64,000 nt of DNA from an uncultured Gammaproteobacteria bacterium (GTDB lineage: Bacteria > Patescibacteriota > Patescibacteriia > Magasanikbacterales > GWA2-37-8): assembly GCA_964634875.1 (NCBI GenBank), contig CAZWKA010000003.1, forward strand, positions 85,928-149,927, written 5' to 3'. Position 1 is the first letter of the stretch; each line of letters opens with the position of its first letter. The notes under the pieces are model-generated. The model had not been told where the DNA came from, ran no database searches, and was given only the letters and a program-made list of their open reading frames with translations. Position numbers and translations under genes: made by a program. This document shows, piece by piece, positions 2,152 through 21,924 of the stretch.

Positions 2152-2168
2152 CCCCAATTAAAACCATT

Positions 2169-5620: not shown

Positions 5621-6112
5621 TTAGAGTTCTTTGATTTGGCGTTTTGACTCCCGATCAATGTCTCGGTTTTTAAGCGACTCACGTTTGTCGTAGGTATGTT
5701 TACCTTTGGCAACTGCGAGTTCGACTTTGATAAGGCGACTTTTAGTATACACGCTTAAAGGGATGATTGTCAAGCCTTTTTCGAGTGCCTTGGTGCGTAA
5801 ATACTCAATTTCTTTGCGGTGGAGCAAGAGGCGACGGCTGTGGGTGGGGTCGTAGTCTTTTTGGGGTCCAGCTTGAAGGTAGGGTGGGACGTGGGCGTTC
5901 GTAAGGTACGCTTCATTATTATGGAAGCTGACAAAAGCCTCTTTGAGGCTGATATGGCCGGATTTGATTGATTTTACTTCGCCGCCGGTTAATAACAAAC
6001 CGGCCTCGATTTTTTCGAGGATTTCATAGTTAAAATGGGCTTTTTTATTATCGGCTAGGGTAGGCATAGGGGATAATTGGCTCACTTTAGCATTATTTTG
6101 GTTAAAAAGCAA
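5621..6112 (-). CDS. smpB: SsrA-binding protein SmpB
   Basis: 163 aa. Basic C-terminal tail. SmpB-like core. Adjacent to tmRNA. Confidence 0.85.
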   Translation of the reverse strand: MLFNQNNAKVSQLSPMPTLADNKKAHFNYEILEKIEAGLLLTGGEVKSIKSGHISLKEAFVSFHNNEAYLTNAHVPPYLQAGPQKDYDPTHSRRLLLHRKEIEYLRTKALEKGLTIIPLSVYTKSRLIKVELAVAKGKHTYDKRESLKNRDIDRESKRQIKEL

Positions 6113-6199: not shown

Positions 6200-6664
6200 A
6201 TGCGTGTTCAGAAACTCGTTTTTGTGTTCGGTCTATTGGCCGGTTGTGCCGGTGGTCCGCGGGCCTTTGAATCGAGTCCGCCACCCATCCACTACGGCAA
6301 TGTGACCGTATCTTCGGGTGACGGATGCTGGTCTGTCGACCTGCAGGCCGGGGCTACGCCCTATGCCGTGCCTTTGGATGAGAGTGACACACAGACCCTT
6401 GGCTTCGCTCTCCAGCGGACCTGCCCGTCCCCCGCTGACCAGTACTCCGAGGTCGCTGTCACCTTCGTGCCGTCGAGAGCGATTCCTCAGGATGTCGCCT
6501 ACCAACTGACGGGCTGTGGGCGTCAGAAGGCTATGGGTCTGGCCGAGGGTAGTAATCCTCCGCTCCGTAAGATCAGCGATGTCGTTCTCCATGTGCCGAA
6601 CAATATCGACCATCACATCTGTTTCATACATGTGGTGGAGATGCGTATCCCGGCCATCAACTAG
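6200..6664 (+). CDS. GC-rich small lipoprotein (possibly horizontally acquired)
   Basis: Signal peptide with lipobox (LLAGC). Strong SD GGGAGG. The segment is about 60% GC against a roughly 47% background. The antisense ORF 6233-6631 is judged spurious. Confidence 0.45.
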   Translation: MRVQKLVFVFGLLAGCAGGPRAFESSPPPIHYGNVTVSSGDGCWSVDLQAGATPYAVPLDESDTQTLGFALQRTCPSPADQYSEVAVTFVPSRAIPQDVAYQLTGCGRQKAMGLAEGSNPPLRKISDVVLHVPNNIDHHICFIHVVEMRIPAIN

Positions 6665-6851
6665 AACGTCCTTGCTCCAGTGATCCTTGATCTTGGGGCA
6701 ACATGCTACGCTTGCCGAACGCTGTCCGCTTCGGCAAGCCTGACTCCTTAGCGTATTAGGAAATCTAACCTAGTACATTAAGGAGAAAAACAGTTTTCTA
6801 GGACTGTTTTACGCTTCCATTTTTACATCCTTCGAGGTATACTGTTCTCGT

Positions 6852-7646
6852 ATGAAGCAATTTCCGTATCTTTCCTTGCATCCCAAGCTGGCAGTAGCCA
6901 TTGAAGTGGTTTTTGGTTTTGTCTGGCTTACCTTTTTGCCGCAAATTGACGTGTGGTGGAAGTTTGGGGTGTGGATCGGGATACGGCTCTTCTGGTGGAT
7001 GTTACTTATCCGAGTTATCTTTTTTTCAGCTGCCCTAAGCCGTATCAAACACTGGGTTTCACTTGGTTTTTTTCTCGTTGGCTGCAGCGCTTATATTGTT
7101 TTTATTGACCAAGCCCGTGTAGGTCAAGGCGTAGAAGCGGCAGCAGTTTTGTTGCCGGCAATTAGCTTTTTGTTATTGCCGAGTACTGACCAAGAATTAT
7201 CGTTTGCCCTTAAACCAGAGCGCCGATGGCGGTTTTTTATGGTTGTGCTGGGGTTGTCCGGCATTTGGAGTGGAATAATTGGCGGTAAGGCATTTGGTGT
7301 GTACCTTTTTAATATTGGATGGCTAGTAATCGCTGGATCAATTGCGACGTTGGCTATAAGCGCATGGTGGTGGCGAGAGTACGGCTTACCTGTTGGGAAA
7401 CGTTTTTGGCAAAGTTCGGTGGCAATTTTTTTGTTGACACTCGAGACGGCTTGGGCCGTAACTGTTTCACCGCTCGGGTTTTTTGAGGGAGCGCTGGTTA
7501 TTACGTGGCTTTGGTATGTCCTTTGGCTTTTATTCCGCTTCCACCTTTCAGCCGAAGGGGTAGTGTGGCGTAAGCAGTGGTTTTTCTTGGTTTTTAATGC
7601 GCTCGGCATGATCGTTTTCTTGACGCTTGTTGTTCGCTGGAAATAA
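6852..7646 (+). CDS. Integral membrane protein (multi-pass), first gene of the long operon
   Basis: Multiple hydrophobic, Trp-rich helices. TATACT -10 element ending 8 nt upstream suggests a near-leaderless start. Confidence 0.6.
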   Translation: MKQFPYLSLHPKLAVAIEVVFGFVWLTFLPQIDVWWKFGVWIGIRLFWWMLLIRVIFFSAALSRIKHWVSLGFFLVGCSAYIVFIDQARVGQGVEAAAVLLPAISFLLLPSTDQELSFALKPERRWRFFMVVLGLSGIWSGIIGGKAFGVYLFNIGWLVIAGSIATLAISAWWWREYGLPVGKRFWQSSVAIFLLTLETAWAVTVSPLGFFEGALVITWLWYVLWLLFRFHLSAEGVVWRKQWFFLVFNALGMIVFLTLVVRWK

Positions 7647-7655
7647 TTTTATTGT

Positions 7656-8726
7656 ATGTCTTCACTTAATCATTTGCCGCCGCATTTGCCGGCACCAACC
7701 TGTAGTATCGAACAACATGCCCGGCATGAGCGGCTGAAGTTTTTTTTCATTGCTGCTTTTTTTGGAGTCCTGGGTGGTCTCACAGGCGCGTCAATTTTAC
7801 TCGGGTGGATCTGGCCAGGGTATGGCGGGGGAGATACCTGGAGTTTTTCAGCGTACCACGCTGGTGCAGTAGTTAATCCGCTTGAAGGGCGTGTGGCCGA
7901 AGATAGCAGTGACCGGTTGGTTTCTGTCTATAAGGATACTTCAGTGGCTGGCGAAACACGCTATCTGACGGATAAAAATAAAGTTGGCGAGGCCGTCGTC
8001 TTGAGTACTGATGGCTGGCTCGTGATGTACACCCCTTCTTTTGACGGTGTTATTAAAAATTGGCAGGTACTTGATGCTGATGGTCAAGTCTTGCCACTTG
8101 AAAAAACGCTTTTTGACCGCGTTGCTGGACTGCTGTATTTAAAAGTGGTGAGCCAAGACCGGGTGGTGGCATTTGCTGACGTGCCCAAAATTGGTGATGA
8201 TGTTTTTGTTCATGAGAACGGTAGGTGGACCCAGGCAGCGATTGAGTCCACGGATGGTTCACTTTTTGAGCTGAGTCATCTCGACAGTGCGCCGACAACG
8301 GCCTATGTGGTTACGCGTTCGTTTGAAGCTGGTGCGCCTGTTTTTTCACGCCAAGGCCGGTTGGTTGGTTTTATCGCCAAAAATAACCTTATTTTACCGG
8401 TTGAATCTTTTGCCCCAATCGTAACTTCGGTCCTCAGTGGGCAAGGGGTTCGTTATCCTTCATTTGGTGTGGAGGGTTTATTTGATGAAGATGAGCCAAT
8501 CATTATTTCTGGCAAACGCGTTTCTGGTTTTTTGGTGCAAAAGGTACTTGTAAAAAATAGTCTGTTGAAGCGTGGAGATGTTATTCTAGAGGTGAATGGT
8601 CAGATTGTAACCAAACCAATTTTGTGGCATACTATGTATAGCAACAAAGAAGTACGAGCGGTAGTTCTGCGTGCTGGAACCAAGATTCCGCTTGTCCTAA
8701 ATTTTCTACCTATTTCTAATCCTTAG
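7656..8726 (+). CDS. Membrane-anchored trypsin-like/PDZ protein, probably a catalytically inactive HtrA-like pseudo-protease
   Basis: N-terminal TM helix. HtrA-like core in which GNSGGPL is replaced by EAGAPVF and no catalytic His is present. C-terminal PDZ-like segment (GFLVQKV...GDVILEVNGQ). Confidence 0.5.
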   Translation: MSSLNHLPPHLPAPTCSIEQHARHERLKFFFIAAFFGVLGGLTGASILLGWIWPGYGGGDTWSFSAYHAGAVVNPLEGRVAEDSSDRLVSVYKDTSVAGETRYLTDKNKVGEAVVLSTDGWLVMYTPSFDGVIKNWQVLDADGQVLPLEKTLFDRVAGLLYLKVVSQDRVVAFADVPKIGDDVFVHENGRWTQAAIESTDGSLFELSHLDSAPTTAYVVTRSFEAGAPVFSRQGRLVGFIAKNNLILPVESFAPIVTSVLSGQGVRYPSFGVEGLFDEDEPIIISGKRVSGFLVQKVLVKNSLLKRGDVILEVNGQIVTKPILWHTMYSNKEVRAVVLRAGTKIPLVLNFLPISNP

Positions 8727-8732
8727 TAATGT

Positions 8733-9326
8733 ATGCTCAGCCTCCTTCTTAAACACAGTAAGACGCTTATCGCGTGGGGGGTTTTGGTAGCTGTGATTTC
8801 GGTTGGGGTAAGCTTTATTTTTCCTAAACAATATAGCGCTGTTAGTCGTGTCATTATCATTTCGCGGGACAAAACAGGTGTTGACCCCTATACCCAGGCC
8901 AAAGCAGCCGAACGAGTTGGTCAAGATTTGGCGCAGATCATGAAAACAACTGATTTTTACGATAAAGTTGTAGGTGAAAATGCCTCGGTATTTCAAGCTG
9001 GATCTTGGAAAAACCTTGACGACCGTGCGCGGCGTAAAAAATGGCAGAAAGATGTCCGGGCACAGATGGTCTATGGTGCCAGCCTCCTCGAAGTTACTGC
9101 TTATGCCGTTGGGCCAGACAACGCTCTGGCTTTATCTGCGGCGGTTACAAAAACACTGGCGGCACACGGGTGGGAATATAGCGGTGGCGATGTTGCGATC
9201 AAGCAAGTGGACAGCGCGCTTGTCTCGCTTCTTCCGGCACGTCCTAATTTTGTCCTGAATGGAGCGGTTGGTTTTTTGGTGGGTGGTTTTTTAGCAGCCC
9301 TCTGGGTGGTTCGCTCGAAAGGTTAA
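8733..9326 (+). CDS. Wzz/PCP-like chain-length-determinant-type protein (two TM helices flanking a soluble domain)
   Basis: N- and C-terminal TM helices. Overall architecture of short PCP/Wzz-family proteins. Low sequence certainty. Confidence 0.4.
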   Translation: MLSLLLKHSKTLIAWGVLVAVISVGVSFIFPKQYSAVSRVIIISRDKTGVDPYTQAKAAERVGQDLAQIMKTTDFYDKVVGENASVFQAGSWKNLDDRARRKKWQKDVRAQMVYGASLLEVTAYAVGPDNALALSAAVTKTLAAHGWEYSGGDVAIKQVDSALVSLLPARPNFVLNGAVGFLVGGFLAALWVVRSKG

Positions 9327-9348
9327 ACTATTCTTAGGTTCAAGCAGT

Positions 9349-10743
9349 ATGCTCACTGAATCAGGAGATTATTATCCTGGTGAAGAACTAGAGAAACCTC
9401 GGCAACTTACCTTGACTGAACGTCTGCAAGGAACCTTTCAGGAAATACAGCAGGGTTTGTATGACGGGCAGCACACCCAGGTGTTAGAAAATACACATTA
9501 TCAAGACAAAGTTGCTGAGATTGCTTTTTTATTGGCTGATCTCGATAAGGATCCGACTCTGACGGTAGAAGGACCGGCTCGAATCGGGCGGATGAAACTG
9601 TGTGAAACAAAAATACGTCAATTAGACCGATTTATTAATAATTTATTGGAATCGAAGTACGGGTATAAAAAACGAGAGAAAGAACAGGTCGAAAAACGGG
9701 AGCGAGCCTACCAGTTTAGTGAGGATGGCCAGCAGATGGTAGTTGAGGGTGTAGCTGTTTCACTTCTGCGCACTGATGTTGCGGAGCTTCCCCGGATAAT
9801 CCACGGTGCGCATTCTGACCAGATCAGTTATGGTAACAAGCTGATTTTTGAATTGTATCCTTTTAATGCCAGTATCGATCCCAATGATCCTCAGCCTCAA
9901 AAAATAGAAATTATTTTTAAACAAGGAAGAGAAACAGATGGTAAGTGGTTCTATGAAGTCAGACGGGCGGCGGTAGAACGATCTGCTCAGGCGCTCGCAG
10001 AATTTTTCCGCACTTGTGGTTTGCCCGCTTCTGATTATGCAAAGAAGAAGGTTGAAGCTGATGATGAGGACGATGATTCCCCGCTTATAGAGGAAGTGGT
10101 AGTGCCAACAAACGAAGAACATGCGCCAGTCATTAGGACAATTACGCCAGATGAGTTGGCTCATCGTGAATGGGTCGCAGACCAAAAAAATAAATCCGCA
10201 CGCTGGAATGGTGTTGCTACACCATTTGTACCCCTAGCTCCACTCGGTAGATTAGTCCAGCGTTTTAAGCGACCACTGCTTGCACTTGGCTTTGCTGGCG
10301 GCCTCTTGGCTACTCCCGAAACTGCCCAGCAGAACAATGAACGTCCAGCAGCACTTATTGCTCAAAAGAGAGGGGAAGAAGAGGTGAAAAAAATTGAATC
10401 TTTACATGCTGAGGATCTGCGAGCTGAGTTGGTGCGAAAGAGCCTGGTTGAAACGCTGGTTGATCAGGCGATCCTTGCGGATAAAGACCTGCAACGTGAG
10501 CGTGGTAAGAAAAGATATGATCGCACGCAAATCACTGCTTTTGTGAAAGAACATCTACAGTCGCTGGCTGGGCAACATAATGTGGTAGTAGAAGGGAAGG
10601 TGCTAGTTGACCAGGCGCTCGTTTCTGGGTTAGTACAGGAAATTATGACTGATAATCCTCGGCACGCCAAAAGGTTCAGTCGAAAAATTATTAAACCGCT
10701 AATTAAGGCTGCAAAAAGGGCTTCAGCCAATCATACCTCTTAA
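9349..10743 (+). CDS. Hypothetical charged protein (464 aa)
   Basis: Long ORF translationally coupled to downstream genes. No signal peptide or TM helix. Confidence 0.6.
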   Translation: MLTESGDYYPGEELEKPRQLTLTERLQGTFQEIQQGLYDGQHTQVLENTHYQDKVAEIAFLLADLDKDPTLTVEGPARIGRMKLCETKIRQLDRFINNLLESKYGYKKREKEQVEKRERAYQFSEDGQQMVVEGVAVSLLRTDVAELPRIIHGAHSDQISYGNKLIFELYPFNASIDPNDPQPQKIEIIFKQGRETDGKWFYEVRRAAVERSAQALAEFFRTCGLPASDYAKKKVEADDEDDDSPLIEEVVVPTNEEHAPVIRTITPDELAHREWVADQKNKSARWNGVATPFVPLAPLGRLVQRFKRPLLALGFAGGLLATPETAQQNNERPAALIAQKRGEEEVKKIESLHAEDLRAELVRKSLVETLVDQAILADKDLQRERGKKRYDRTQITAFVKEHLQSLAGQHNVVVEGKVLVDQALVSGLVQEIMTDNPRHAKRFSRKIIKPLIKAAKRASANHTS

Positions 10744-10747
10744 ATTT

Positions 10748-13033
10748 ATGAAGAAATTAGCTTCTCCTGACGCAGAATCATCTGCGCGCCACTATCCTCA
10801 GTTTGACACTACGGATTTTGATGATGCACCAACCCCCGTTTTTGAGCGTCCGAAAAAAATGCGGCCGGTGTTTTCGTCTGCTGATTCCGAAAGCACCCCG
10901 ATCCCTAGTGGGCGCTCGGAAATAGATTCTACTCTACAAGATATTGGGATCAAGCGAGAAAAACGTTTAGATACTACGGTGGTAGACCACGCCCAGCCGG
11001 AGAAAAAAAAGACGCCTAAAAAAGAGCTGGAGCGTAGGGGAGATATTGTCTATGTTGGTGACAAGGAAGTTGATCTAACGCTTCCCACCAATCCGTCGCT
11101 GCCTTTTGAGAAGCCGTGGTACCCGGCTCGGGGCCGTAACTTGCTTATTTTTGGTTATGGCAAGAGTAATGTTTTTGTTTTGTATAAAGAAGGAGCCAAA
11201 TTAATGCTTCAAACTAAGATCGGCGGTAAAGAGAATTCCCCGGTACACTTAAAAACAGGTCACGATATTATAAATGCAATAGGGGTATTTAAGGGTAATG
11301 TCCAATTTAATTACCGATCCAAAGAACCCGGAATAGCTTCGGCGACTGAAGATGACGACACGGAAATCCCTGCGCAAATGTCTCGTGATGCCGATGAACT
11401 TCCGCCTACCCCCGACCTCGTTGTTCCGCTTCGTCCGACTAATGAACCGCCGACGGGAGGACGAGAAATACCTTTTAGTGAAAACCAGAAAGTAGAATTA
11501 GGCATGGCCTTTGATGATTTGATCGACGAACATAACGCTCCAGAAGTAATTGTCGAAAAAACTAGGTCAACAGAAACTGCGGCAGGTGAGATCGACATGG
11601 AAGCGACAGTGGTTACCCCTGAAGAGAAGGCGGGTATCAGTGAGTTGGTGGCTGCTTTGAGTGAAGAGGGGTATGATGCAGCGTACTATAAAGAAGGCCC
11701 TGTAGAAGATTTTCCGTCGCGCGACGAAAAAAAAGTGCGCGTTGGTTCGGCGGGAAGTATCTTTGGTACGAGTTCTACGGGTGGTAAGGATTTTGTATAT
11801 TCGCGGGTTTCGCCGGTTGAAAGAGAGAGTGTCGAACCTCTCAGGTCTAATTATACTGCAATCGTGAGCGAAGTTGCGTCTGACGGAACACTGAGTGGTG
11901 CAGTTACTGAAGCCAGTACGGCAAAAGCCTTACGTGCCAGCCAAGATATTTTGCGTTTAGCTTTGAGGGAGCAAGACCATTTTACGCTTGAAGCCGCTTT
12001 TGGGGCGACCCACCAAATCGCCCACGGATTTGTTAAGCCGGGTGACTGTATTTCAGTTGCAGCTACCACGCTTGACGCTAAGGGGCAAGTAACGTTTGGT
12101 TCGTGGGGTGATACAGGGGTTTTGATGATTCGGGATGGTAAACAGGTGAGTGTCGTTGACCAGGCAGAAGTAACGCCGATTAAGGCTGAAAGTAAGAGTG
12201 TGGAAGTGGATCCACAGATTGAGATGCGTTCAGTTACAGGTAAAGATCATGACCAGGTTATTCAAGCAACCAAGCAATTTTGGAAGTTGGTCACTGTATA
12301 TGAAGTTGAGAAATTATCCAAGCGGTACCGCGGTCAGGCTTTGGAAAAGGCTTTGTTTAATCTTGCAACAGAACGTAATAACGCAACCAAAGATTATACG
12401 ATTGAAGAAGATGTGGGGGTTAAAGTGACTAAAATTTTTCGCGAACTTAAACCAGAAAGCTTCGCTATCCAGGTTGTGCACGTGGAGCTGCCAGAACAAC
12501 GCGGAATTCTTTCAAAGATTGCAAGTAGTAAAGTAGGTAAGTGGCTGCGCGGCGCGGCGTTGGTCGCATTTGGTTTGTCGGGAACGGGCGAGGTGCGCCA
12601 GGCTGAAAAACCCGTTGTGCAAGGCCGGGCAGTGGAGCCCCAAGCAGGGCCGGTTCGTACGCTGGAACACAAAGTACCAGGAATGGTTGCTTTTGAAGTA
12701 CAGCGTGATAATGAGGCTGAGCTGGTTCACTTTGTGAATGAGCGCAATAAAGAGCTTAAAATGCTCGGAAAATTGGCCGATGATAAAGGCCGGATCGTTT
12801 GGGTGGCGGCAGTGCTTAAACAGCTTTTGCGTGGTAAAGATACGGCCGGCTTTAAGACTGCTGACCTGACGCCCATGGTTAAGATTAATCCAGAAAAAGG
12901 CACTTTTGAATTCACAAATGTCGACCAGCTAGATGAGTTGCTTGGTAAAATTGCTGAAGCGAGCAAACACAAGAAGCATATTAAAGTAGTAAAAGGCTAT
13001 GCTGCGGGAGTGTATAAAGATGCCTTCAAATAA
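10748..13033 (+). CDS. Hypothetical large protein (761 aa) with a degenerate PP2C/SpoIIE-like stretch
   Basis: Weak PP2C-like motif order (ATTL ... GDTG ... RDG ... VVDQ). Starts 4 nt after the previous stop. Confidence 0.55.
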   Translation: MKKLASPDAESSARHYPQFDTTDFDDAPTPVFERPKKMRPVFSSADSESTPIPSGRSEIDSTLQDIGIKREKRLDTTVVDHAQPEKKKTPKKELERRGDIVYVGDKEVDLTLPTNPSLPFEKPWYPARGRNLLIFGYGKSNVFVLYKEGAKLMLQTKIGGKENSPVHLKTGHDIINAIGVFKGNVQFNYRSKEPGIASATEDDDTEIPAQMSRDADELPPTPDLVVPLRPTNEPPTGGREIPFSENQKVELGMAFDDLIDEHNAPEVIVEKTRSTETAAGEIDMEATVVTPEEKAGISELVAALSEEGYDAAYYKEGPVEDFPSRDEKKVRVGSAGSIFGTSSTGGKDFVYSRVSPVERESVEPLRSNYTAIVSEVASDGTLSGAVTEASTAKALRASQDILRLALREQDHFTLEAAFGATHQIAHGFVKPGDCISVAATTLDAKGQVTFGSWGDTGVLMIRDGKQVSVVDQAEVTPIKAESKSVEVDPQIEMRSVTGKDHDQVIQATKQFWKLVTVYEVEKLSKRYRGQALEKALFNLATERNNATKDYTIEEDVGVKVTKIFRELKPESFAIQVVHVELPEQRGILSKIASSKVGKWLRGAALVAFGLSGTGEVRQAEKPVVQGRAVEPQAGPVRTLEHKVPGMVAFEVQRDNEAELVHFVNERNKELKMLGKLADDKGRIVWVAAVLKQLLRGKDTAGFKTADLTPMVKINPEKGTFEFTNVDQLDELLGKIAEASKHKKHIKVVKGYAAGVYKDAFK

Positions 13034-13131
13034 AGCTGGCAGGATGGTATGCTCGTTTGTTTGGTAAAAAAACTTCTGAAAAACCAAAAAGAGTGCTATA
13101 CTAATGGATAATTCATTTTTTACCTTTTTTT

Positions 13132-13479
13132 ATGGCCCAGATTACCCCTTTTTCGGATGACTCCTTACCAGAATTTGAGGAGATGGCGATTTCCCAGGGA
13201 CGAAAGCTGGGCTTTTTGATTGCCAAGTCCGAACTTTTGAGTGATGAAGAAAAAGAAGCCTTGCTCACGGTGCTCCCTGAGATGTCGCCAGAGCAGCTGG
13301 ATGAATTAACTGTCACCCTTGAAGCTCAGCATGTACTTCAACAAAAAGACCCGAATGATGCTGTGGTCAAAGAGGGTTTGGTTCAAGCTGAAGACGAGTA
13401 TAACCAGGCGATGGATAAGGCAAGTGGTGATACGCTTAAGAAGCTTGATCAGCTGCAGAAAAAGGTAAGCGGTCGTTAG
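13132..13479 (+). CDS. Small acidic helical protein (115 aa)
   Basis: Glu/Asp-rich. Lies between giant ORFs, which suggests a chaperone or adaptor-like role. Confidence 0.45.
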   Translation: MAQITPFSDDSLPEFEEMAISQGRKLGFLIAKSELLSDEEKEALLTVLPEMSPEQLDELTVTLEAQHVLQQKDPNDAVVKEGLVQAEDEYNQAMDKASGDTLKKLDQLQKKVSGR

Positions 13480-13489
13480 AATATAACCT

Positions 13490-13711
13490 ATGCTTGATAG
13501 CGATGCAATGAAACCGTCCACGTCTGAACCAGAGAAAGGACTTACTCCAGAGGAGCAGGTTGCTTTGTACTCGGAGCAGATTGCTGAACTTGAGACGCTC
13601 CACCGCCAAGGTTTGGTTTTGAAGCACCAGTTGCTTGAGGCGGTTTCAAATGAAAAACGGGCAGCTCTTCTCCAGTCTATTAAGCAATCTATTCCTAAGA
13701 AAAATAACTAA
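13490..13711 (+). CDS. Small helical protein (73 aa)
   Basis: Tightly packed between neighbouring genes in the operon. Confidence 0.4.
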   Translation: MLDSDAMKPSTSEPEKGLTPEEQVALYSEQIAELETLHRQGLVLKHQLLEAVSNEKRAALLQSIKQSIPKKNN

Positions 13712-13717
13712 CAGCGT

Positions 13718-16700
13718 ATGCCTAAAAAAGCGCCTGGTAAGGAGGGTGGTGGAGAAGTTTCGCTGCAGGATAAGGTTTTGCGTTTAGTTACCCGAGAACA
13801 TAGTAATCCTGACCGTAAAGTGCTTGAAACAGCGCTCCATTTGCGTGAGAAAGTTAGGTTTCTCTCGGCTGAGCAGGCTCGGTTAGTCGATGAGTTGACT
13901 GCGTTGTATGATTTGCTTACCGATGTGGTTGGTGAAGACCAGCAAGAGAAACGAAAAGAACTTTTGTTGCAGGCAGAGAAGTATTTCGTTGCTGCACGCG
14001 AACATATCATGAAACAATTTCCAACACCAAAAGATGCCCAGAAGTTTACCGGTGTTGAAAAACCGGCTGAACAATTAACGGCTGCGGGAGCCGAAACCTG
14101 GCTCCAGGGAGAAGAAGCAAAATTGGCGCCATACAATCTTTCAAAGCGGCAGCGCAAAGATTTGGCCGCGGGTAAAAAGCAATTTGAAGTTTTGGTTGGA
14201 AAATTAAAGACTGGTCAGATTACCGAACATGAAATTTTGACGACCTATCCAAAAGCACAAAGAGAGGTGGTTGAGACCGTCCGCCTTATTCTAAAGAAAC
14301 AGCAAGACCAATCACCAGCCTTTGCTGCCCCGGAACCGGAAGAGTCCGAAGTGCAAGAAGAGGCTCCTCGACAAAAACGGGTTGTAGAACAAATTGCTTC
14401 GCCTGATGTTGACCCTCAAGTTGAGGAGGAGTCGGTTGAAACTGGAGCTGAAAATGAAACCGATGAACAAATTTTTGACCGGATCAAAGCCGAGATTGAA
14501 AGCGGTGCTTTTACACTTGAAAAAGCCAAAGCATCTATTGAATTGGCTCGGACTGTCGGCGGACAAACTATTCGTGATCCTCGAAATGAAGAAGACACTT
14601 TGGCGACAGGTTGTTATTGGTACGCTTTTGGGGAAAATGGTTTGCCTCCGGATGCAGCGAAAGCACTGGCGCGTACCATGCGTGATCACTTTACCAAAGG
14701 AAAGGCCGAACAAAAAGATCGGCAAGGTGAAGCACGGTTTAATGAAATAAAAGCCCGTTTTCTAGTTGATAACCCGGCAGATATTTTGGCAGTGGCCGAC
14801 GAAATGATTGAAAAGGCAAAATCAACCCCCAAAGGACTCATGTCGACATTCAAAGCGACTTCGCCGGAGCAACAGGTATCGGTTGGTGCTTTTTGGTTTT
14901 TTAAGATGTACAAAACACCCTATAAAGGGATAGATGCAGATGCTAAAGTTTTTGCTAGCCAAGCAGCGGCTCATTTCAAAGATAAGGAGCCAAAAGTCGA
15001 AAAATCAAAAGAAGTACCCTTGGTTCGCAATAAACCAGGTTTTAATGACGCTGCAGCTCAAAAAAATGCAGAAGAAGCGGAGTATAAGGCTCAGCACCCG
15101 GAACATCCCGCACCAGCTGAGTCGCACGAAACTGAGAGTGCGGGGGCGCACGTCTTTTCTTTAGCTGATGCTATTGAAGTATTCAATGCGCTTTCTGCAG
15201 AGCAGCAAAAAAAAGTTAAAACCAGACCACGAAGAAGTCCTGAAGAACCGTTTCAAGATCCAGCGTTTACTGTGGGTGAGGCTCGTTACTGGAAAGCGTT
15301 CTTGGACAATCCAGATGTTGAACAGGCTGAAGCGGAGGCCCTAGGTAAACAAGCTGAACTTGAGTTTAGATCAATGATGGATAAGTGCATTCGCCAGCTT
15401 ATTTCTAAAGATCCAGAACAGGCTGTTTCAACTGCTCAGGATATAATTGAGCAGGCGGAGCAGCTGGAGGACAGGGAAATTTTTCCTGAAAAGGGAAGTG
15501 AAGCGGACTCGGATGCAAATATCGTTGCTCTTGGTGCTTTTTTGGTGGCTAAACATTTTGGCGGTCGAAGTCGGTCTGAAGCTAATCAGTTTGCAGAGCA
15601 CGCAAAGGATATTTTTATGACGGCTGAAGCGGCGCTGGAAGAAGCAGTTCCAGACGTAGCACCGACTCCTCGAGAGAGCGCTGAACCGGCACCGAAAGTT
15701 GAGTCGGTATCTCAGCGGTCAGTTGAAAATGAAATGAAGGTGGTTAGTCATATTGATCCTATTTTTAAAGCTTTAGATGAGGGCGAAGATTTACAATTTA
15801 CTTTTGTGGAAATAAGTCGGGCCGCTGAAAACCTGCTTAGCTCACCAAATTTTCAGGATGGAAGTTTTGATCTCGCAAAAAAAACAAACACTGAGAAAAT
15901 TGTCAGAGCCCGTTATTTGTACGCCCTTAATGTTGAGAATCTGGGAGAGCGGAAAGCTGCCCAGCTGGCCAGCGAAACCAGAAAAGCGTGCCAGCGGATT
16001 GAAAAGCTGCAAAAACCGGTTGAAAAAGTACTGATTGTTCCGGATGAAGATGAGGAGGACGATGCTGACCGCCGAGCGGCTAGTATCGCTGCGCGCAGAG
16101 GGGATGTAGTAAGTACGCACTATACGAGTGGGGTGGCGAATGAAATGCGTCGGCCGGCAAAGGATCGGACTGATATGCCGGAAGTTGAACAGCTGTCTCC
16201 GGAAGAAAAGAATAAAGCGAGTCTCTTGAGTAATCTCAAACGAACGTATTACCGGCCATTGAGTGAAAATATTGAAACATTTACATTCAAAAAAATAACT
16301 GGCAAAGAAGCTGATGAGCGGGACGCATCCCGCTTACTCCGCCGCTTGTATGATGCGCAAGTTGCGCCTTTGGTTGCTGCTTTTGAAGCGGCTGATCCAA
16401 AGAATGCCGATGAACTGGCTCGTCTGGAACGGGAAATTAAGAGCGCGGTCAAAGACCTTGATCTTAAAAGACAAGTCGCTGAGAATGCGGAATCGCTCGA
16501 CTCTATATCGATTGATTGGTTGCGTGATGGTGTTAAGAAATTAGCTGAGCAAGAATACTCTGAAAAAATCACTCTCTATAATAGTTTAGTACGTGACAAG
16601 AATGAACTTATGACTGAGTTCTCCCTCTTGCGTGATTCGTTCCCAGAAATTGACCAAGGGTTAACTACGTTTGGCCGTGAGCTGGCGAAGGCTGACGCGA

Positions 16701-16849
16701 TATATAGAAAGTCCCGGCAACCAGGTATCAAAGGAACTGAGGCAGCCAAGGTTTTTCAAGAAGCTTTTGCTGAGGCTGTCCAACAAGCTGCTAAAGAACG
16801 TAATAGCGTCCTCTTTACGCTTGAGAAGATAACCGGGGTAGCCCTTTAG
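13718..16849 (+). CDS. Giant Glu/Lys/Ala-rich alpha-helical protein (1043 aa)
   Basis: Uninterrupted 3.1 kb ORF. Highly charged. No TM helix or signal peptide. Confidence 0.65.
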   Translation: MPKKAPGKEGGGEVSLQDKVLRLVTREHSNPDRKVLETALHLREKVRFLSAEQARLVDELTALYDLLTDVVGEDQQEKRKELLLQAEKYFVAAREHIMKQFPTPKDAQKFTGVEKPAEQLTAAGAETWLQGEEAKLAPYNLSKRQRKDLAAGKKQFEVLVGKLKTGQITEHEILTTYPKAQREVVETVRLILKKQQDQSPAFAAPEPEESEVQEEAPRQKRVVEQIASPDVDPQVEEESVETGAENETDEQIFDRIKAEIESGAFTLEKAKASIELARTVGGQTIRDPRNEEDTLATGCYWYAFGENGLPPDAAKALARTMRDHFTKGKAEQKDRQGEARFNEIKARFLVDNPADILAVADEMIEKAKSTPKGLMSTFKATSPEQQVSVGAFWFFKMYKTPYKGIDADAKVFASQAAAHFKDKEPKVEKSKEVPLVRNKPGFNDAAAQKNAEEAEYKAQHPEHPAPAESHETESAGAHVFSLADAIEVFNALSAEQQKKVKTRPRRSPEEPFQDPAFTVGEARYWKAFLDNPDVEQAEAEALGKQAELEFRSMMDKCIRQLISKDPEQAVSTAQDIIEQAEQLEDREIFPEKGSEADSDANIVALGAFLVAKHFGGRSRSEANQFAEHAKDIFMTAEAALEEAVPDVAPTPRESAEPAPKVESVSQRSVENEMKVVSHIDPIFKALDEGEDLQFTFVEISRAAENLLSSPNFQDGSFDLAKKTNTEKIVRARYLYALNVENLGERKAAQLASETRKACQRIEKLQKPVEKVLIVPDEDEEDDADRRAASIAARRGDVVSTHYTSGVANEMRRPAKDRTDMPEVEQLSPEEKNKASLLSNLKRTYYRPLSENIETFTFKKITGKEADERDASRLLRRLYDAQVAPLVAAFEAADPKNADELARLEREIKSAVKDLDLKRQVAENAESLDSISIDWLRDGVKKLAEQEYSEKITLYNSLVRDKNELMTEFSLLRDSFPEIDQGLTTFGRELAKADAIYRKSRQPGIKGTEAAKVFQEAFAEAVQQAAKERNSVLFTLEKITGVAL

Positions 16850-16867
16850 TTTTTAATGCCTGCTTAG

Positions 16868-17050
16868 ATGTCTATGTCAAAAAATGTATCCCAGCCAATA
16901 AAAGCAAAGGCTCAGGCGCTTGGCAGAAAAGTGAGCCAATTAAAAAATAAGATTGCGGAGACGCGTGAAGACGGGGAAGCCCTCAAGCGGCAGCTAACTG
17001 TAGCACTCGACCGGGCGAAAGTGAGCAAAATTTTAAAAAAAATTAAGTAG
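16868..17050 (+). CDS. Small basic coiled-coil protein (60 aa)
   Basis: Operon position. Reported only because of its context. Confidence 0.35.
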   Translation: MSMSKNVSQPIKAKAQALGRKVSQLKNKIAETREDGEALKRQLTVALDRAKVSKILKKIK

Positions 17051-17075
17051 CCTTTAGTTTTATTACTACGTTTTT

Positions 17076-20000
17076 ATGGCGAGCCCTGAAAAAAAATTGA
17101 TCACCCCTGAGTTCAAACTGCATGTGCAGCTGGTGAAAGAGCTGAATGAAGGTGACCGTAGCGACCAGCACCTGCAGGCCCTGTTTGAATTGAATGAGCG
17201 TTTTAAGTCAGTGAAGGATGTCATGAAAGACCTGCGCAGGCTCTTGAAAGAGTGGGGTGCGATCCATGACCAAAAAGAGGGGCTTCCCCCACGTGAACTC
17301 AACCAGGCAATTGCTGAGTATGCCAAAAAAGTAGTGGCTTTAGAAAACGAGTTGCTCGAGCTTGAGGCGGAAGAAAAAGAGGTTGAGGAGGCGTGGTGGA
17401 AGGAGCAGCAGGCTACAATTAAGTCTTTGGTAGCACAAAAAGATCCGCGTCATACCGCCAAAGACATCCAAAAAAGACGGGATTTAAAAAATGCTACATT
17501 TGAGGCGTTGGCTTTGTTTAAAAAGAATCAAGAGGGACAAGCGAGCCAGTCCGACCTTCACGAGTACGGGCGTTTCAAACGCCAGGTTATTGATTCGCTG
17601 GCGGAATTAGCTCCGCGGGTCCAGACAGACGAACTAGACGAGGCGGTTGATGCCCGTGATACTCAACCTAATCCGGTTGTCCCCGATGTGGCTTCCGAGC
17701 CAAAACCAGTCGATGCCCGTGATACTGCTCCACACACACCAGTTATGGATGATGAACCAGATGCCCGGGACACTGCGCCGCATACTCCAGTGTTTAATGA
17801 CACTAATCCTGATGCTCGTGACACCGCTCCTCATACGCCGGTTTTTGATGATCCTGATGCCCGTAACACTGCTCCCCACACACCAGTATTTGCCGAACCA
17901 CCAGCGCCGCCAAAGAAAAAAGGTTTTTGGGGTCGGATTAAAGAAGTCTTTTCTAGCAAAGAAGTTCAGAAAAAAGCAGCTAAAACAATTTTGTACGATG
18001 TGCCGATGCGCGCTCTGGGGGCAAAGGCAGTTTTTGATTGGATCGGTGCGTCTCCGCTTGCTGCTGCCCGTGTCGCTGAAATGGTCGGGGGTGAAAAATT
18101 AAAAAATAAAGTTAAGGGGTATGTTGGTGAGGGCAGGGGAGATGTTGCTGCTTACTATAAGGGCGGTCGCGAGGCTGAAGAAGAATTAGAACAACTGCAA
18201 CCTCAGATCGATGAAGTGGTGCTTGCGCTTGGTCGTGACATGAAAGAACGTCGTGCTCAGGACACGGACGCTGAGCTGCGCGTGCAAGCAAAATTAGATA
18301 CTTTGCAACACATGATCGCGGGGGCAAAAAATATCGCTCCGGCCGAGCGCGCTGTTTTGTTTGAATCGCTGACGGATATCGTTACAAGCTACGGTGAAGC
18401 CCAAAAAACTGCCGAAGCTGCTTTGCTCAAAAAAACCCAAGCGCTCCTTGAGCGTCATGTACGTAACCAGGCCAACAAATTGGCTTTGGTTCGTGATGGT
18501 GTTAACGCCATTCTTACTGCAGCTGGTTTACCAATGGTTCGGGCAGTTGCCTACGCTGGTATGAGTGCCTATGAAGCAGTGCGACGGGTAAGTCTTGAGC
18601 GTAAAGGCGGGGCGGCGGGTGAATCTAAAAAAGATGCTGCTAAACGGTATGCCAGTACTGTTGGAACTGCTGCGCGCGAATCGTTTAATGCTTTGCTCTT
18701 CAGAGGCCGCAAAAATGAAGGTTCGGTGGCGCAACGTGGTATTGAAGGTGTGGCTGCGTGGGGTCAGGCTCTGTCTGTCTTTGGTATCAGTGTTCAAGCG
18801 CTTGATGGTCATGCACCAACGAGTAGTGAAGGTTTCCAATCGCTCATTAATGCGATTAAAGAACGAGGTGCCGAAGGCGCACTTGACCAAATGGGTAGCA
18901 ATATTGCCCAGAATGCAGACCGTGTTGCCAATATCCCCGCTACGTTTGCCCGTGGCGTGGGGCATGCGTATGATGCGGGGCACACTGCGGTCGATTATGT
19001 AACTGGTACCTCGCATGATACTTCTCGGCTACTTGATGGTGCGCCAGAATTTTCTTTTAATAATTTTGCTCAAGAAAACCATCTGAGTAAACCAGAAGGA
19101 GATTTTTTGGCCGGTCTGCTTAAATACCCCAGCCTTCGCAATAATCCGGAAGTATTTCAAAATATTCTTAAGCTCTCGGATGCCGGCAACCATAATGGTG
19201 TAGCAGAACGAATACTTGGGGACGTTAAAATGTATACCTTCAAAGCAATGGTGGATGCCGGAGCTGGTAAAGAAGAGTTGGCCGGTTTTGTTCGCGATCA
19301 ACATTTTAGTAGTCGTCATTTGGAACACCTCAAAGGCGTACACCTGGGTTCAAAACCCAGTGCGGAAAAAATTGCTGAAGCGCTCCAGGCAGCGATGGGT
19401 AAGAAGTCAAGCGGCGTTTATGATGTCTTCAAAGCTAAGGCAACAAGTGAGTACCAACATGCCCTTGCCCAGAAACATGGTGACCATTTACGTTTGCGCG
19501 GAAATGATTTGCGTCTGTATGGCTTTGACAAAGATGGTAACCCAATTTTGGGTGGCAAAGGTACGGCAACGCTGCTGCACCGTTCTGGTGGAAGTCATGG
19601 TGTTCTTCAGGCTGGAAAATCCAGCGTGTCGTCTGCTCAGGCGGTTGAAGCGTATGCCAAGCAGCTTGGGTATGCTGATCCAGAAGCATATGAAGTATAT
19701 AAAGATAATGATGCCCTGGACGATGCCGGTGATATGTCACCGCCAGCCAGCTGGAAACTCGCCGGCTCGAGTTCGGCGGCCGAGAGTATACGGCATTTGG
19801 AAGAAATGTTTGCTATGGAAGACCCTCAAGCCTATGCGCTCTATCAAGCGGGTAAAGAGAACGGTGGTCTCGAAGATTTTGATACCTCTACCCTTGTCGC
19901 TAGTCGCACTGACATGGTGCCAAGTTCGTCTGGTTCAGTTACGGCTGAGGCAATGCAACGTGCTCCGGCGGCGGAGGCGTTGCGAACTACTCCTCGTGAA

Positions 20001-20675
20001 ACGGTTGTGGCTGCGTTCCATCCGCAAAAAGAACATGATTGGGGAGTTGATTCAAAAGCAGAAGCTCCGGTTGAAGCCCGTGCTCCTCGTGTTAGTTCCC
20101 GCGCCCTAGAAACTGCAGCTGGTTCAGAAGCTGCCCAGGGTGGATGGGGGATGGATGCGCAAACAGCGGAAAGGAATTTGAGTAGAATGGAAGCGGCTCT
20201 CGAGCGTTCGATTAATGGAGTTGACCTTACCGGCGCCGGTTTTTCCAAGAATCGTATTATGGATGCTTTTGCGGCTTGGCGTGACCGGGTGAGCGGTGCG
20301 ATTGAAGATGGAAAGCCGCTTGATGCGGGAGTTAAGGCCAGTGCCACCGAAGCACTGCAACGGTTTAATGTTTCTAGTAAAGATACTGAAGCTCTTGGGT
20401 TTGCGATTTTTGATGCTGATCCTAAGCTGCATAGTGTCGCACGAGAAATTAGTTTGATTATGGCACCTAAAGATCCTAATGTGGGTTTTGCGGCTAATGG
20501 TAGCCGCGGGGTCTGTGTCTTTGACCGGTCAGCCGGTACTTGGCAGTTTTCGACCTATTCAGACAAGCTTTTCTCAATGAGCGGCGGAAGATTGGTTAAA
20601 GCTGACCTCCAGGGCAATATAGAAAAGGTCTATGAAGACCCCCAAGCCTTTTTAGAAGTTCAGCGAGAAGAGTAA
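17076..20675 (+). CDS. Giant protein (1199 aa) with tandem DARDTAPHTPVF repeats
   Basis: 3.6 kb ORF containing four to five peptide repeats and a Pro-rich spacer. Confidence 0.65.
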   Translation: MASPEKKLITPEFKLHVQLVKELNEGDRSDQHLQALFELNERFKSVKDVMKDLRRLLKEWGAIHDQKEGLPPRELNQAIAEYAKKVVALENELLELEAEEKEVEEAWWKEQQATIKSLVAQKDPRHTAKDIQKRRDLKNATFEALALFKKNQEGQASQSDLHEYGRFKRQVIDSLAELAPRVQTDELDEAVDARDTQPNPVVPDVASEPKPVDARDTAPHTPVMDDEPDARDTAPHTPVFNDTNPDARDTAPHTPVFDDPDARNTAPHTPVFAEPPAPPKKKGFWGRIKEVFSSKEVQKKAAKTILYDVPMRALGAKAVFDWIGASPLAAARVAEMVGGEKLKNKVKGYVGEGRGDVAAYYKGGREAEEELEQLQPQIDEVVLALGRDMKERRAQDTDAELRVQAKLDTLQHMIAGAKNIAPAERAVLFESLTDIVTSYGEAQKTAEAALLKKTQALLERHVRNQANKLALVRDGVNAILTAAGLPMVRAVAYAGMSAYEAVRRVSLERKGGAAGESKKDAAKRYASTVGTAARESFNALLFRGRKNEGSVAQRGIEGVAAWGQALSVFGISVQALDGHAPTSSEGFQSLINAIKERGAEGALDQMGSNIAQNADRVANIPATFARGVGHAYDAGHTAVDYVTGTSHDTSRLLDGAPEFSFNNFAQENHLSKPEGDFLAGLLKYPSLRNNPEVFQNILKLSDAGNHNGVAERILGDVKMYTFKAMVDAGAGKEELAGFVRDQHFSSRHLEHLKGVHLGSKPSAEKIAEALQAAMGKKSSGVYDVFKAKATSEYQHALAQKHGDHLRLRGNDLRLYGFDKDGNPILGGKGTATLLHRSGGSHGVLQAGKSSVSSAQAVEAYAKQLGYADPEAYEVYKDNDALDDAGDMSPPASWKLAGSSSAAESIRHLEEMFAMEDPQAYALYQAGKENGGLEDFDTSTLVASRTDMVPSSSGSVTAEAMQRAPAAEALRTTPRETVVAAFHPQKEHDWGVDSKAEAPVEARAPRVSSRALETAAGSEAAQGGWGMDAQTAERNLSRMEAALERSINGVDLTGAGFSKNRIMDAFAAWRDRVSGAIEDGKPLDAGVKASATEALQRFNVSSKDTEALGFAIFDADPKLHSVAREISLIMAPKDPNVGFAANGSRGVCVFDRSAGTWQFSTYSDKLFSMSGGRLVKADLQGNIEKVYEDPQAFLEVQREE
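17649..17895 (+). repeat. In-frame tandem repeat (about 39-45 nt unit) encoding DARDTAPHTPV(F/M)DD
   Basis: Repeated GATGCCCGTGA(T/C)ACTGCTCC(A/T)CA(C/T)ACACCAGT units are visible in the sequence. Confidence 0.7.
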
Positions 20676-20723
20676 GATTGATGGTTTTTATCGAATTAGC
20701 GCTCTTGCCCTCAGTATATATAA

Positions 20724-20762
20724 AAAACACCTTACCACCCTCGTGGAAGGTGTTTTTATTTT
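20724..20762. terminator. Bidirectional intrinsic terminator closing the long operon
   Basis: AAAAACACCTT-loop-AAGGTGTTTTT with flanking A and T tracts. Confidence 0.7.
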
Positions 20763-20853
20763 ATTTAGATCTGGTAAAGAGTTTGGGTGGGGTTGTGAAG
20801 TAGCAAAAAAAGCCTTATTTTAGCCAAAAAACTGTTTTTACGCGCTGCAGCCC

Positions 20854-20882
20854 TTGACAAAACCCAAAAAGTATGCTATAGT
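20854..20882 (+). promoter_or_regulatory. Near-consensus sigma70 promoter facing the GC-rich island
   Basis: TTGACA, 17 nt spacer, TATAGT. Confidence 0.55.
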
Positions 20883-20997
20883 ATGTCGTTACCTCAAAAA
20901 GAGACTAGTATACGTAAGAGAGACGTATCCTAGACACCGGCCCAAATTGATGCTATATCCTCTCTACACTTAGGGAGTTTTTTTAAAACCAACGCGT

Positions 20998-21165: not shown

Positions 21166-21612
21166 ATGAACGCTTCCAAGATTGCCCTCGGTTTCGCCGC
21201 CCTCGCCATCGCCCTCAGCACCGGCTGCAGCGGCACCCCGTTCTCCGGCAGCAGCGGCATCGACGCCGGCCGCAGCCTCAGCCGGAGCACGACGACGGAG
21301 ATCGACACCACCACCACCGTCGTCGACGGTCCCGCCTTCACCAAGGCGGACAGGGCGCTCCTCGCCCGGCTGCGCACCACGGTCTACGGTGGGAAGAAGA
21401 CGGTCGGTCTCGTCCGCCGCGTCGACTACCTCGAGTACAGGACCGGGCACAAGGCCGACCTCGACGCCCTGGCCGAGATGGACGCGCGCACCAAGCTCGC
21501 CCAGATCGAGGCCCGCCGCGCCACCAAGGCCCCCAAGCTCGCCCAGAACGACGGCGGCACGGTCAACGTGCTCGTCCGCACCCCCGCGGACGCCACGGTC
21601 GAGAAGCGGTAG
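21166..21612 (+). CDS. Lipoprotein (148 aa), GC-rich
   Basis: Start MNASKIALGFAALAIALSTGCSG (lipobox) with a good SD. GC3-rich codons. The ORF-track start at 21133 is upstream of the SD. Confidence 0.6.
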   Translation: MNASKIALGFAALAIALSTGCSGTPFSGSSGIDAGRSLSRSTTTEIDTTTTVVDGPAFTKADRALLARLRTTVYGGKKTVGLVRRVDYLEYRTGHKADLDALAEMDARTKLAQIEARRATKAPKLAQNDGGTVNVLVRTPADATVEKR

Positions 21613-21793: not shown

Positions 21794-21924
21794 CTTTACA
21801 AACGCAAGACAGGACATTTTTAACTTCAATATCGTTGAAGTAAGAAACGCCCTGTCTTGCGAAAAACAGATTGGTCCCCACGCAGGGACTGTAACGGCTC
21901 ACTGACAGAATGAAGGAGTCCATC
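21794..21924 (+). promoter_or_regulatory. Structured leader 2, paralogous to leader 1
   Basis: Same TCTTTACAA box. AAGACAGGACAT...CCCTGTCTT stems with a different but still complementary inner hairpin. GTCCC/GGGAC hairpin. CACTGA and AAGGAG elements conserved. Confidence 0.5.

Follow-up and report, generated by a model that had tools for sequence, protein, structure and literature searches.

What kind of system is specified by a run of ten genes on one strand, three quarters of which codes for four large proteins of no described family? The genes (p1 to p10) lie in a 64,000-nucleotide (nt) stretch of contig CAZWKA010000003.1, which was analysed at its full length and is hereafter called the window. 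Our answer is a tentative one: we suggest that the cluster forms an envelope module which is specific to one lineage, the Magasanikbacteria-type Patescibacteria, and which consists of two linked units, the membrane proteins p1-p2-p3 and a set of giant proteins with small partners. The Patescibacteria, also called the Candidate Phyla Radiation (CPR), account for a large part of the diversity of bacteria, and their envelope organisation and cell contact are barely known. CPR genomes contain many uncharacterised clusters, among which the present one is distinguished by its strong conservation and by the rules according to which small and giant proteins are paired. Lengths below are in amino acids (aa) and positions are those of the window.

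6852-7646, + strand: p1, polytopic membrane protein, Trp-rich, 264 aa
7656-8726, + strand: p2, membrane-anchored HtrA/DegS-fold pseudoprotease with PDZ, 356 aa
8733-9326, + strand: p3, short Wzz-like protein of the polysaccharide co-polymerase (PCP) kind with two transmembrane (TM) segments, 197 aa
9349-10743, + strand: p4, charged protein, 464 aa
10748-13033, + strand: p5, charged protein, 761 aa
13132-13479, + strand: p6, small protein 1 of type A, 115 aa
13490-13711, + strand: p7, small protein 2, 73 aa
13718-16849, + strand: p8, acidic, repeat-bearing protein, 1043 aa
16868-17050, + strand: p9, basic small protein 2, 60 aa
17076-20675, + strand: p10, giant protein, 1199 aa

The conservation of the cluster was assessed in 25 distinct genomes with a p2 relative; the related loci are designated L002, L003 and so on. 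Sixteen loci with p2 relatives are recorded as Candidatus Magasanikbacteria or Patescibacteria and one (L023) as Candidatus Paceibacteria, and the label 'uncultured Gammaproteobacteria' on the third-party metagenome-assembled genome records of some relatives is probably a mislabel. Seventeen of the 25 genomes carry p1-p2(-p3), an acidic protein of ~105-115 aa, usually a ~65-aa protein, and a giant of ~990-2600 aa. In another two (L003 and L008) p4, p5 and a p8-like giant take their place, in two the contig ends just 3' of the small proteins, and four have the trio or p1-p2 alone. The p3 gene lies directly or almost directly 3' of p2 save in L007 and L018, and p1 is found directly 5' of p2 at all loci with visible upstream sequence, L015 excepted. 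Four further metagenome loci all combine p1-p2-p3 with a type-A small protein and a giant, and L029 pairs a p10-type giant with a type-A small protein in the absence of the membrane trio. In most loci (more than 15 genomes) the cluster adjoins the smpB-infC-rpmI-rplT genes, which run divergently from it. The gene order persists at 25-40% protein identity, even in a second class, the Paceibacteria (L023). Compared with L002, the membrane trio of the window is 62-79% identical and the large proteins 30-41%. A check for synteny in relatives, proposed in the preliminary description of this DNA, hence came out in favour of the cluster, which is conserved in more than 20 genomes; this conservation, together with the length of the open reading frames (ORFs), excludes that they are chance ORFs.

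The small proteins provide the second line of evidence. Small protein 1 occurs in two types, and p6 belongs to type A, which has the motif GRKLGxLIA...LPEMxxEQL. Neither p6 nor the other type-A proteins had any match in Pfam, and the DUF5663 model gave nothing at E <= 1. The type-B proteins (in L010, L012 and L016) pass the threshold of this same Pfam family DUF5663 (PF18908), on which the searched literature held no paper. Between the types no relationship was detectable (hhalign probability 11%). Type A stands with a p10-type giant at nine of nine loci, and a DUF5663 protein stands with a giant bearing Gly/Ala-rich segments at seven of seven, so the type of the small protein and the type of the giant agree at all 16 loci. 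A p6-like protein accompanies each p10-type giant that was examined, the one at L029 included.

Small protein 2 forms one family over both locus types, comprising p7, p9 and proteins of 56-79 aa. The BLAST network which unites them runs over L005-L020 (E 1.5e-12), L020-p7 (E 7.8e-4) and L005-p9 (E 2.7e-4); p7 and p9 gave no direct alignment and are linked only through members at other loci. As p7 and p9 fall into one family, the window seems to hold two units of small protein 2 plus giant, namely p7-p8 and p9-p10. Pairs of small and large proteins, reminiscent of effectors and chaperones, had been proposed in the preliminary description. The pairing gained support, from the agreement of types and from the pair which L029 keeps without the trio; for the effector/chaperone function there was no positive evidence.

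All ten ORFs were found co-directionally on the + strand at the coordinates listed above, as had been claimed for them, and from p1 to p10 they are separated by gaps of 9, 6, 22, 4, 98, 10, 6, 18 and 25 nt. Nine of the exact products coincide with public gene calls, all without a product name; the exception is p9, whose exact sequence has no public gene call but does have relatives. A strict alternation of large proteins with three small acidic ones had also been described, and it was not borne out. From p4 onwards two big proteins (p4 and p5) are followed by two small ones (p6 and p7), a big one (p8), a small one (p9) and a big one (p10), and p6 alone is clearly acidic (isoelectric point 4.4), p7 having an isoelectric point of 5.6 and p9 being strongly basic (10.7, net charge +11). 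The four large proteins are highly charged and lack a signal peptide, just as first stated: 27-33% of their residues are charged, they have no hydrophobic N-terminus, and no TM segment was found in the Kyte-Doolittle hydropathy scan (cutoff 1.6) by which we predicted TM segments.

We scanned all ten proteins against Pfam, NCBIfam, PHROGs and PADLOC, and the Wzz match of p3 was the sole result of these scans; p1 and p4 matched no family in any of the four collections. Recognisable folds were obtained for two of the ten proteins, one of them with its defining chemistry lost. The remaining eight fall into no described family; they include p4, p5, p8 and p10, which account for three quarters of the cluster. 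The large proteins were also checked for housekeeping folds, as the preliminary description advised, and none was found. BLAST detected no paralogy among the four large proteins, and none when the N-terminus of p8 was compared with that of p10; a search of the operon for tandem repeats in the DNA was negative. The searched literature held nothing on giant proteins in Magasanikbacteria, or on Patescibacteria with Wzz or PDZ.

A ~70-aa repeat occurs at least three times in p8, at residues 265-327, 356-422 and 569-635. The N-terminal 112 aa of p8 are its most conserved part and the sole portion that BLAST aligned with L002. The hidden Markov model (HMM) of the repeat also matches q8, the giants of L003, L008 and L022, and the N-terminal halves of two single-chain p10-type giants, P0025 (2189 aa) and P0030. 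As p8 repeats are fused to p10-type cores in P0025 and P0030, p8 and p10 jointly seem to resemble a single giant of other species. The p10 protein starts with a helical N-terminal domain (residues 1-190), followed by five acidic Pro-rich repeats of the DARDTAPHTPV type (192-275), which are seen at the protein level only. Its core (~250-650) begins with PPKKKGFW, further conservation extends to ~835, and the C-terminus is conserved as well. A phmmer search with p10 in 1.84 billion cluster representatives yielded 67 relatives, nearly all of 440-2500 aa with a few shorter fragments, most of which share, according to the core HMM, a core of ~370 positions with three conserved hydrophobic/amphipathic helices.

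No Pfam domain was found in the eight members of the p10 family that were scanned. The AlphaFold2 (AF2) model of the p10 core, based on an alignment of 23 sequences, is all-helical and of low confidence (predicted local distance difference test (pLDDT) 57), and as Foldseek returned no match at E < 1 we make no claim on the fold of this core. Sequence searches of the PDB with p5, p8 and p10 singly and with profiles of p1, p5 and the p10 core gave nothing beyond a borderline match of p5 to PP2C, which is treated below. In PADLOC p10 had two chance-level matches (E 0.008 and 0.075), and there was no defence-system match for the cluster. The type-B giants, those beside DUF5663 proteins, have two to three uncharged Gly/Ala-rich segments of 21-46 aa. 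A shared origin of the two giant types is unsupported, as the core HMM does not match type B and the hhalign probability is 0.6%. We also considered KKKGFW as a MinD-like amphipathic membrane-targeting helix; its hydrophobic moment of 0.31 is undistinctive, and it is kept as a weak lead only.

The p4 and p5 proteins are restricted to the clade of the window itself. Orthologues of p4 (~30% identity) occur only in L002, L003 and L008, those of p5 in the same three loci with a partial match in L015, and a word-indexed search with p5 gave one non-self relative only. In ortholog alignments the most conserved patches of both are basic segments combined with a short hydrophobic one. In p4 the top patch is R..RxKxPLLxxG....L..P (residues ~301-323), and in p5 an invariant QRGxLSK...GxWxRxAALVAFGxS is found at ~584-611.

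A profile of four p5 orthologues had a borderline match in the PDB to PP2C 50 (E 0.042 over 98 profile positions), with the motifs GD...L.R.G and ASDGLWD<->ATKxFWK in register; Pfam gave no PP2C match for p5. The metal-binding Asp of the PPM enzymes (DGxWD) is replaced in p5, where ASDGLWD aligns with ATKQFWK, and in the GDSR-like motif the GD varies, L008 having GS. We speculate that the central region of p5 may have a degenerate PP2C/PPM-like fold, which would make p5 a second pseudoenzyme. At L007 (16590-18344) the giant is followed by a 584-aa FHA-domain protein with one TM helix and a weak YscD-cytoplasmic-like match. Taken with the possible PP2C-like fold of p5, this protein hints at phospho-threonine signalling around the module.

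Turning to the membrane trio, p2 has one N-terminal TM segment and had been described from the outset as a TM-anchored HtrA-like protein that retains a PDZ domain and lacks the catalytic Ser and His. The structural comparison agrees with this (fold match at E ~1e-14, triad absent). The AF2 model of p2 (17 relatives in the alignment, mean pLDDT 74) matched MucD, M. tuberculosis HtrA, DegS and DegP in the PDB (Foldseek, E 6.5e-15 to 1e-12, probability 1.0), and the family profile aligns with DegP across the protease and PDZ domains (E 2.7e-6). The columns of DegP His105, Asp135 and Ser210 hold other residues in the p2 family, and across 17 family members the ectodomain has no His or Ser that is invariant or nearly so; p2 scored far below threshold with the trypsin models of Pfam and with the degP model of NCBIfam. 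As no catalytic His, Asp or Ser is conserved, p2 cannot be a serine protease. In the carboxylate-binding loop of the PDZ domain, Y267, G271 and G274 are invariant. The HtrA fold, the lost triad and the invariant loop glycines show p2 to be an HtrA-fold pseudoprotease, whose PDZ domain is probably functional. Its short N-terminal tail, which the predicted topology would place in the cytoplasm, reads PPHLPxPxCxIxxH, with P8, P9, H10, L11, P12, C16 and H21 nearly invariant.

For p3 the initial call of a two-TM Wzz-like protein was confirmed, since it passes the Pfam threshold for Wzz (PF02706, 31.4 bits at a cutoff of 25.5) and has two TM segments, near residues 12 and 174. With TIGR01006 it reached E 4.8e-5 at a score far below the cutoff, and the match to GNVR was weak (E 0.17). 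The ectodomain measures ~140 aa, and the Pro/Gly-rich stretch LLPARPNFVLNGAVGFLVGG precedes the second TM segment. It is the most conserved gene of the cluster, with 79-81% identity to L002 and L003. A Wzy_C gene, of the O-antigen ligase/polymerase-like kind, lies 3.8 kb downstream of the cluster (24475-25941, - strand), and its link to p3 is one of co-location only. Genes for Wzy_C and a GHL15-like glycoside hydrolase follow the cluster in the window (24475-28083), in L026 (8493-11970) and in L027 (18206-22677), FG-GAP repeats occurring with the GHL15-like gene in the window and in L026; the interval to the giant gene varies in content.

The third member, p1, has eight hydrophobic segments and agrees with the multi-TM protein first described. 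A profile search of 5.8 billion proteins returned 18 relatives only, none with a Pfam domain, and the family profile found no relative in the PDB. The invariant residues of p1 are G77, K121, R125, W174, Y177, E198, W219, W221, Y222, R229, F230 and W263. No Cys is conserved in the family. An exosortase or other catalytic role was ruled out for p1 on the lack of a conserved Cys and of any Pfam match.

Three sequence elements bear on how the cluster may be transcribed:

6838-6843, + strand: promoter-like -10 element TATACT, ending 8 nt before the p1 ATG, a leaderless-type start
13094-13102, + strand: internal extended -10-like element TGcTATACT, 29 nt before the p6 ATG in the 98-nt gap between p5 and p6
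~20727-20766, + strand: intrinsic-terminator-like hairpin with T-run that closes the cluster, from the sequence and RNAfold of 20677-20790

At 8 nt ahead of the p1 ATG, the window, L002, L003 and L008 all keep a TATAnT element that has TTCCAT 17 nt upstream. The equal distance in three relatives speaks for the nearly leaderless start of p1 that the preliminary description had suggested. A GGAGG-type ribosome-binding site is absent within 15 nt of the start of all ten genes. At the place equivalent to that of TGcTATACT, both L002 and L022 have TGgTATACT, and the p5 orthologue of L002 is followed in addition by a hairpin with T-run. From the conserved TGnTATACT and this hairpin we conclude that the cluster probably comprises two tandem transcription units, p1-p5 and p6-p10. 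The earlier picture of a single operon with gaps of 4-25 nt and one terminator hence stands as regards the terminator-like hairpin, and gives way at the 98-nt gap with its promoter-like element.

As to what the cluster does, the reading towards which we lean, with reserve, is that of a membrane platform anchoring giant scaffold proteins, cytoplasmic and membrane-associated, along with their partner subunits. The first unit (p1-p2-p3) would be the platform, p3 being of the PCP kind, which normally oligomerises in the membrane. The second unit would consist of large helical, highly charged proteins on the cytoplasmic side, namely p6-p10, supplemented in the clade of the window by p4 and p5. These giants might attach to the membrane through their conserved internal basic-plus-hydrophobic helices, and the giants of type B through long Gly/Ala-rich transmembrane-like hairpins. 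The small helical proteins would then be dedicated partner or assembly subunits, probably bound to the conserved N-terminal domains of the giants, and p1-p2-p3 would tie the sub-membrane scaffold to an extracytoplasmic platform for sensing or binding. In such an arrangement the PDZ domain of p2 could act as the binding or sensing module, and the invariant cytoplasmic tail of p2 would be a likely docking site.

The placement of the giants follows from several features of their sequences. Their first hydrophobic element comes only after hundreds of charged residues, and the N-terminal regions are helical and rich in K and E. With this long charged stretch first, no signal peptide and internal hydrophobic patches, a cytoplasmic, membrane-associated location seems to fit better than that of secreted cargo. 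Further, the best-conserved patches of the p4, p5 and p10 families are all basic-plus-hydrophobic segments. For the proposal as a whole we also count the linkage of the genes, the co-variation of types, the conserved loop and tail of p2, the envelope-biogenesis genes around the cluster, and the slower evolution of the trio compared with the giants. All physical interactions, the cytoplasmic location of the giants and their scaffold role are what we infer here.

Several points weigh against this proposal. Four genomes have the trio or p1-p2 and no adjacent giants; with these trio-only genomes on one side and the L029 pair without a trio on the other, the units are separable. The conserved internal promoter suggests separate regulation of the two. 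The hydrophobic helices of p10 itself contain charged residues and lie below the TM threshold, the hydrophobic moment of KKKGFW (0.31) is unremarkable, and the model of the p10 core is of low confidence and without a known fold. Moreover, fast evolution and dedicated small partners would be equally expected of secreted host-interaction proteins.

In an export or host-contact apparatus, the first alternative, the giants would serve as cargo or act like translocators. The small partners would keep them competent for export, and they would be delivered via or beside p1-p3 to the cell surface or into the membrane of a host. The partner genes lie directly upstream of the giants and co-vary with them in type, and the N-terminal domains are the most conserved in p8 and among the most conserved in p10. 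The hairpin-like Gly/Ala-rich segments of 36-46 aa in the type-B giants recall pore-forming translocators, and the evolutionary rate of the giants is about double that of the membrane proteins. The relatives, finally, are ultra-small groundwater Patescibacteria, presumed episymbionts. The machinery, however, did not appear: no ATPase, FtsK/EssC-like, secretin, Sec-accessory or translocon gene was found in the operon, in the 64-kb window or at ~30 related loci. The ten proteins have no signal peptides and no WXG100, LXG or CesT/SycD-type match at E <= 1 in Pfam and NCBIfam, the K/E-rich helical composition of the giants is typical of cytoplasmic coiled-coil proteins, and p1-p3 are unlike any known protein-conducting channel. 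The function in export, surface assembly or host interaction that was first put forward for the cluster thus gained no positive evidence, with no secretion gene in operon, window or related loci, and we consider the export apparatus somewhat unlikely. More doubtful still is a CPR machine for protein delivery or cell contact unrelated to the numbered secretion systems, in which a PCP-like ring of p3 would form an envelope conduit or anchor together with p2 and p1, and the giants would be deployed through their Gly/Ala-rich hairpins, inserting into the membrane of a partner or host and escorted by the universal ~65-aa and the type-specific ~110-aa partners. Surface-glycan assembly, which we hold to be unlikely, would make p3 a true chain-length regulator working with the Wzy_C protein, p1 and p2 accessory envelope proteins, and the giants cytoplasmic regulators or organisers of the pathway that replace the tyrosine kinase by which PCP proteins are partnered in Gram-positive bacteria. 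Here it counts that p3 lies above the Pfam Wzz threshold, that Wzy_C recurs in L026 and L027, that glycosyltransferases, an EamA transporter and a glycosyl hydrolase are encoded upstream in L005 and L027, and that the remainder of the window holds genes of the peptidoglycan and teichoic-acid type. Yet a flippase, an initiating transferase and a BY-kinase (bacterial tyrosine kinase) are all missing from the cluster, the p3 ectodomain is only ~140 aa with NCBIfam scores far below cutoff, the module at L007 lacks any Wzz-like gene, and the co-variation of small proteins and giants would be left unexplained.

The gene order and sizes (small acidic, small, giant helical) also resemble the tail-assembly chaperones G/GT and the tape-measure protein of phages, and the cluster might be read as a remnant of a phage or mobile element. 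The hydrophobic Gly/Ala segments of the type-B giants and the Rep/serine-recombinase element 3 kb upstream, beside tRNA-Asp, would accord with this. Against it, the best PHROG match had E 9.4e-4 to a family of no known function, the p2 family and a profile of the p10-type core, constructed from relatives, had no relatives in 2.9 million IMG/VR contigs, no other phage or tail genes were found, and the cluster occupies a fixed chromosomal site by smpB-infC-rpmI-rplT in more than 15 genomes; such a remnant is highly improbable. Finally, the genes could be unrelated and adjacent on one strand by chance, with no functional unit behind them, as the internal promoter-like element and the separable units would allow. 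We find this very unlikely, since the order is kept at 25-40% identity and in the Paceibacteria locus, the types co-vary at 16 of 16 loci, and the genes are spaced by 4-25 nt.

The window as a whole is ordinary chromosome, with tRNA-Asp, infC, tmRNA and smpB upstream of the cluster and peptidoglycan and envelope genes downstream of it (Wzy_C, GHL15/FG-GAP, Mur ligases, MraY-like, MurB, LtaS-like and a penicillin-binding protein). The transfer-messenger RNA (tmRNA) gene, with the tag ANLFSKAKSALANAFSTFAPAMA, adjoins smpB (5224-5619 and 5621-6112, both on the - strand). Further upstream a small mobile element at 1351-3662 (+ strand), in a region of 40% guanine plus cytosine (GC), encodes a PF23343 REP_ORF2-G2P replication initiator and a large serine recombinase (Resolvase plus Recombinase), and abuts tRNA-Asp (3621-3696, - strand).

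Four genes on the + strand (6200-6664, 21166-21612, 21910-22577 and 22806-23795) code for secreted proteins or lipoproteins at 58-80% GC, compared with ~46% for the genome and 40-55% for the DNA between them. Three have lipoboxes (LLAGC, LSTGC and LAAAC), none has a Pfam match, and at least two have a strong Shine-Dalgarno sequence (GGGAGG, AAGGAG), unlike the ten cluster genes. The one at 21910-22577 shows an apparent frameshift in a poly-Pro run. The first of the four (p0, 6200-6664) is not an assembly chimera, as a 44%-identical orthologue exists in L002, and all four may have been acquired from a high-GC organism.

Just after the cluster, at 20854-20985 (+ strand), lies the best sigma-70-like promoter match of the region (TTGACA, 17 nt, TATAGT, with a TG extension), followed ~80 nt later by a hairpin with T-run (20960-20985). 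These could delimit a short non-coding transcript; 20854-20985 had no Rfam match and its fold was no better than that of shuffled sequence (z = -0.7). Between the GC-rich genes and Wzy_C, positions 24080-24463 (- strand) encode a four-helix-bundle protein of the 23S rRNA intervening-sequence/bAvd-like kind (PF05635, E 5e-38). A stretch of 34.5% GC at 55660-58844, after tRNA-Glu, may be an island; within it 56523-58115 codes for a 530-aa protein in which a papain-like cysteine protease domain is fused to a GNAT acetyltransferase domain, and a 241-aa protein without family follows.

The cluster offers conserved and tractable candidates for study: a disabled DegS-like sensor, a mini-Wzz, unannotated giants and two partner families. 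The pairing rules of the partners can be read from genomes, and whichever model holds, a new protein machine would be defined. The ensemble matches no described system; it is new in the sense that it is unassignable, and no new mechanism is demonstrated by it.

Among known systems, the proteins HMW1, HMW2 and HMW3 of the Mycoplasma attachment organelle are likewise large and without signal peptide, and they sit under the membrane of a reduced, host-dependent bacterium, as is proposed here for the giants; they are acidic, Pro-rich and coiled-coil. They have no sequence relationship to the giants, and there is no evidence of a polar organelle in the bacteria studied here. Small helical partners encoded directly upstream of a large protein are known from the LXG toxins of the type VIIb secretion system (T7SSb) with Lap1/Lap2 and from the translocators of type III secretion systems (T3SS) with their class II chaperones. 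In the module, too, the partner type tracks the giant type and the N-terminal domain of the giant is conserved; it differs from the T7SSb and T3SS pairs in that it gave no WXG, LXG or chaperone match and includes neither an ATPase, of the EssC type or otherwise, nor a known translocon component; secretion would be hypothetical. With regard to Pfam DUF5663, the type-B proteins of the sister loci belong to this family, whereas p6 of the window represents a separate type without annotation.

With the Wzz/PCP proteins, in particular the short CpsC/Wzd-like forms, p3 shares the two-TM topology, the Pro/Gly-rich stretch and a Wzy_C gene nearby. It departs from them in its short ectodomain and in having neither a cytoplasmic tail nor a partner kinase, and its gene lies between the pseudoprotease and the small-protein/giant genes and not in a glycan operon. 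The closest likeness in fold is that of p2 to the DegS/HtrA proteins (family S1C), with which it has in common the chymotrypsin-like plus PDZ fold, a single N-terminal anchor helix as in DegS, and the glycines of the PDZ loop. One p2 relative is named 'S1C family serine protease' in a public record; this name goes beyond what its sequence warrants, and the lost triad corrects it. What further sets p2 apart from the HtrA proteins is the nearly invariant PPHLPxPxCxIxxH tail, which is a feature of p2 and not of theirs.

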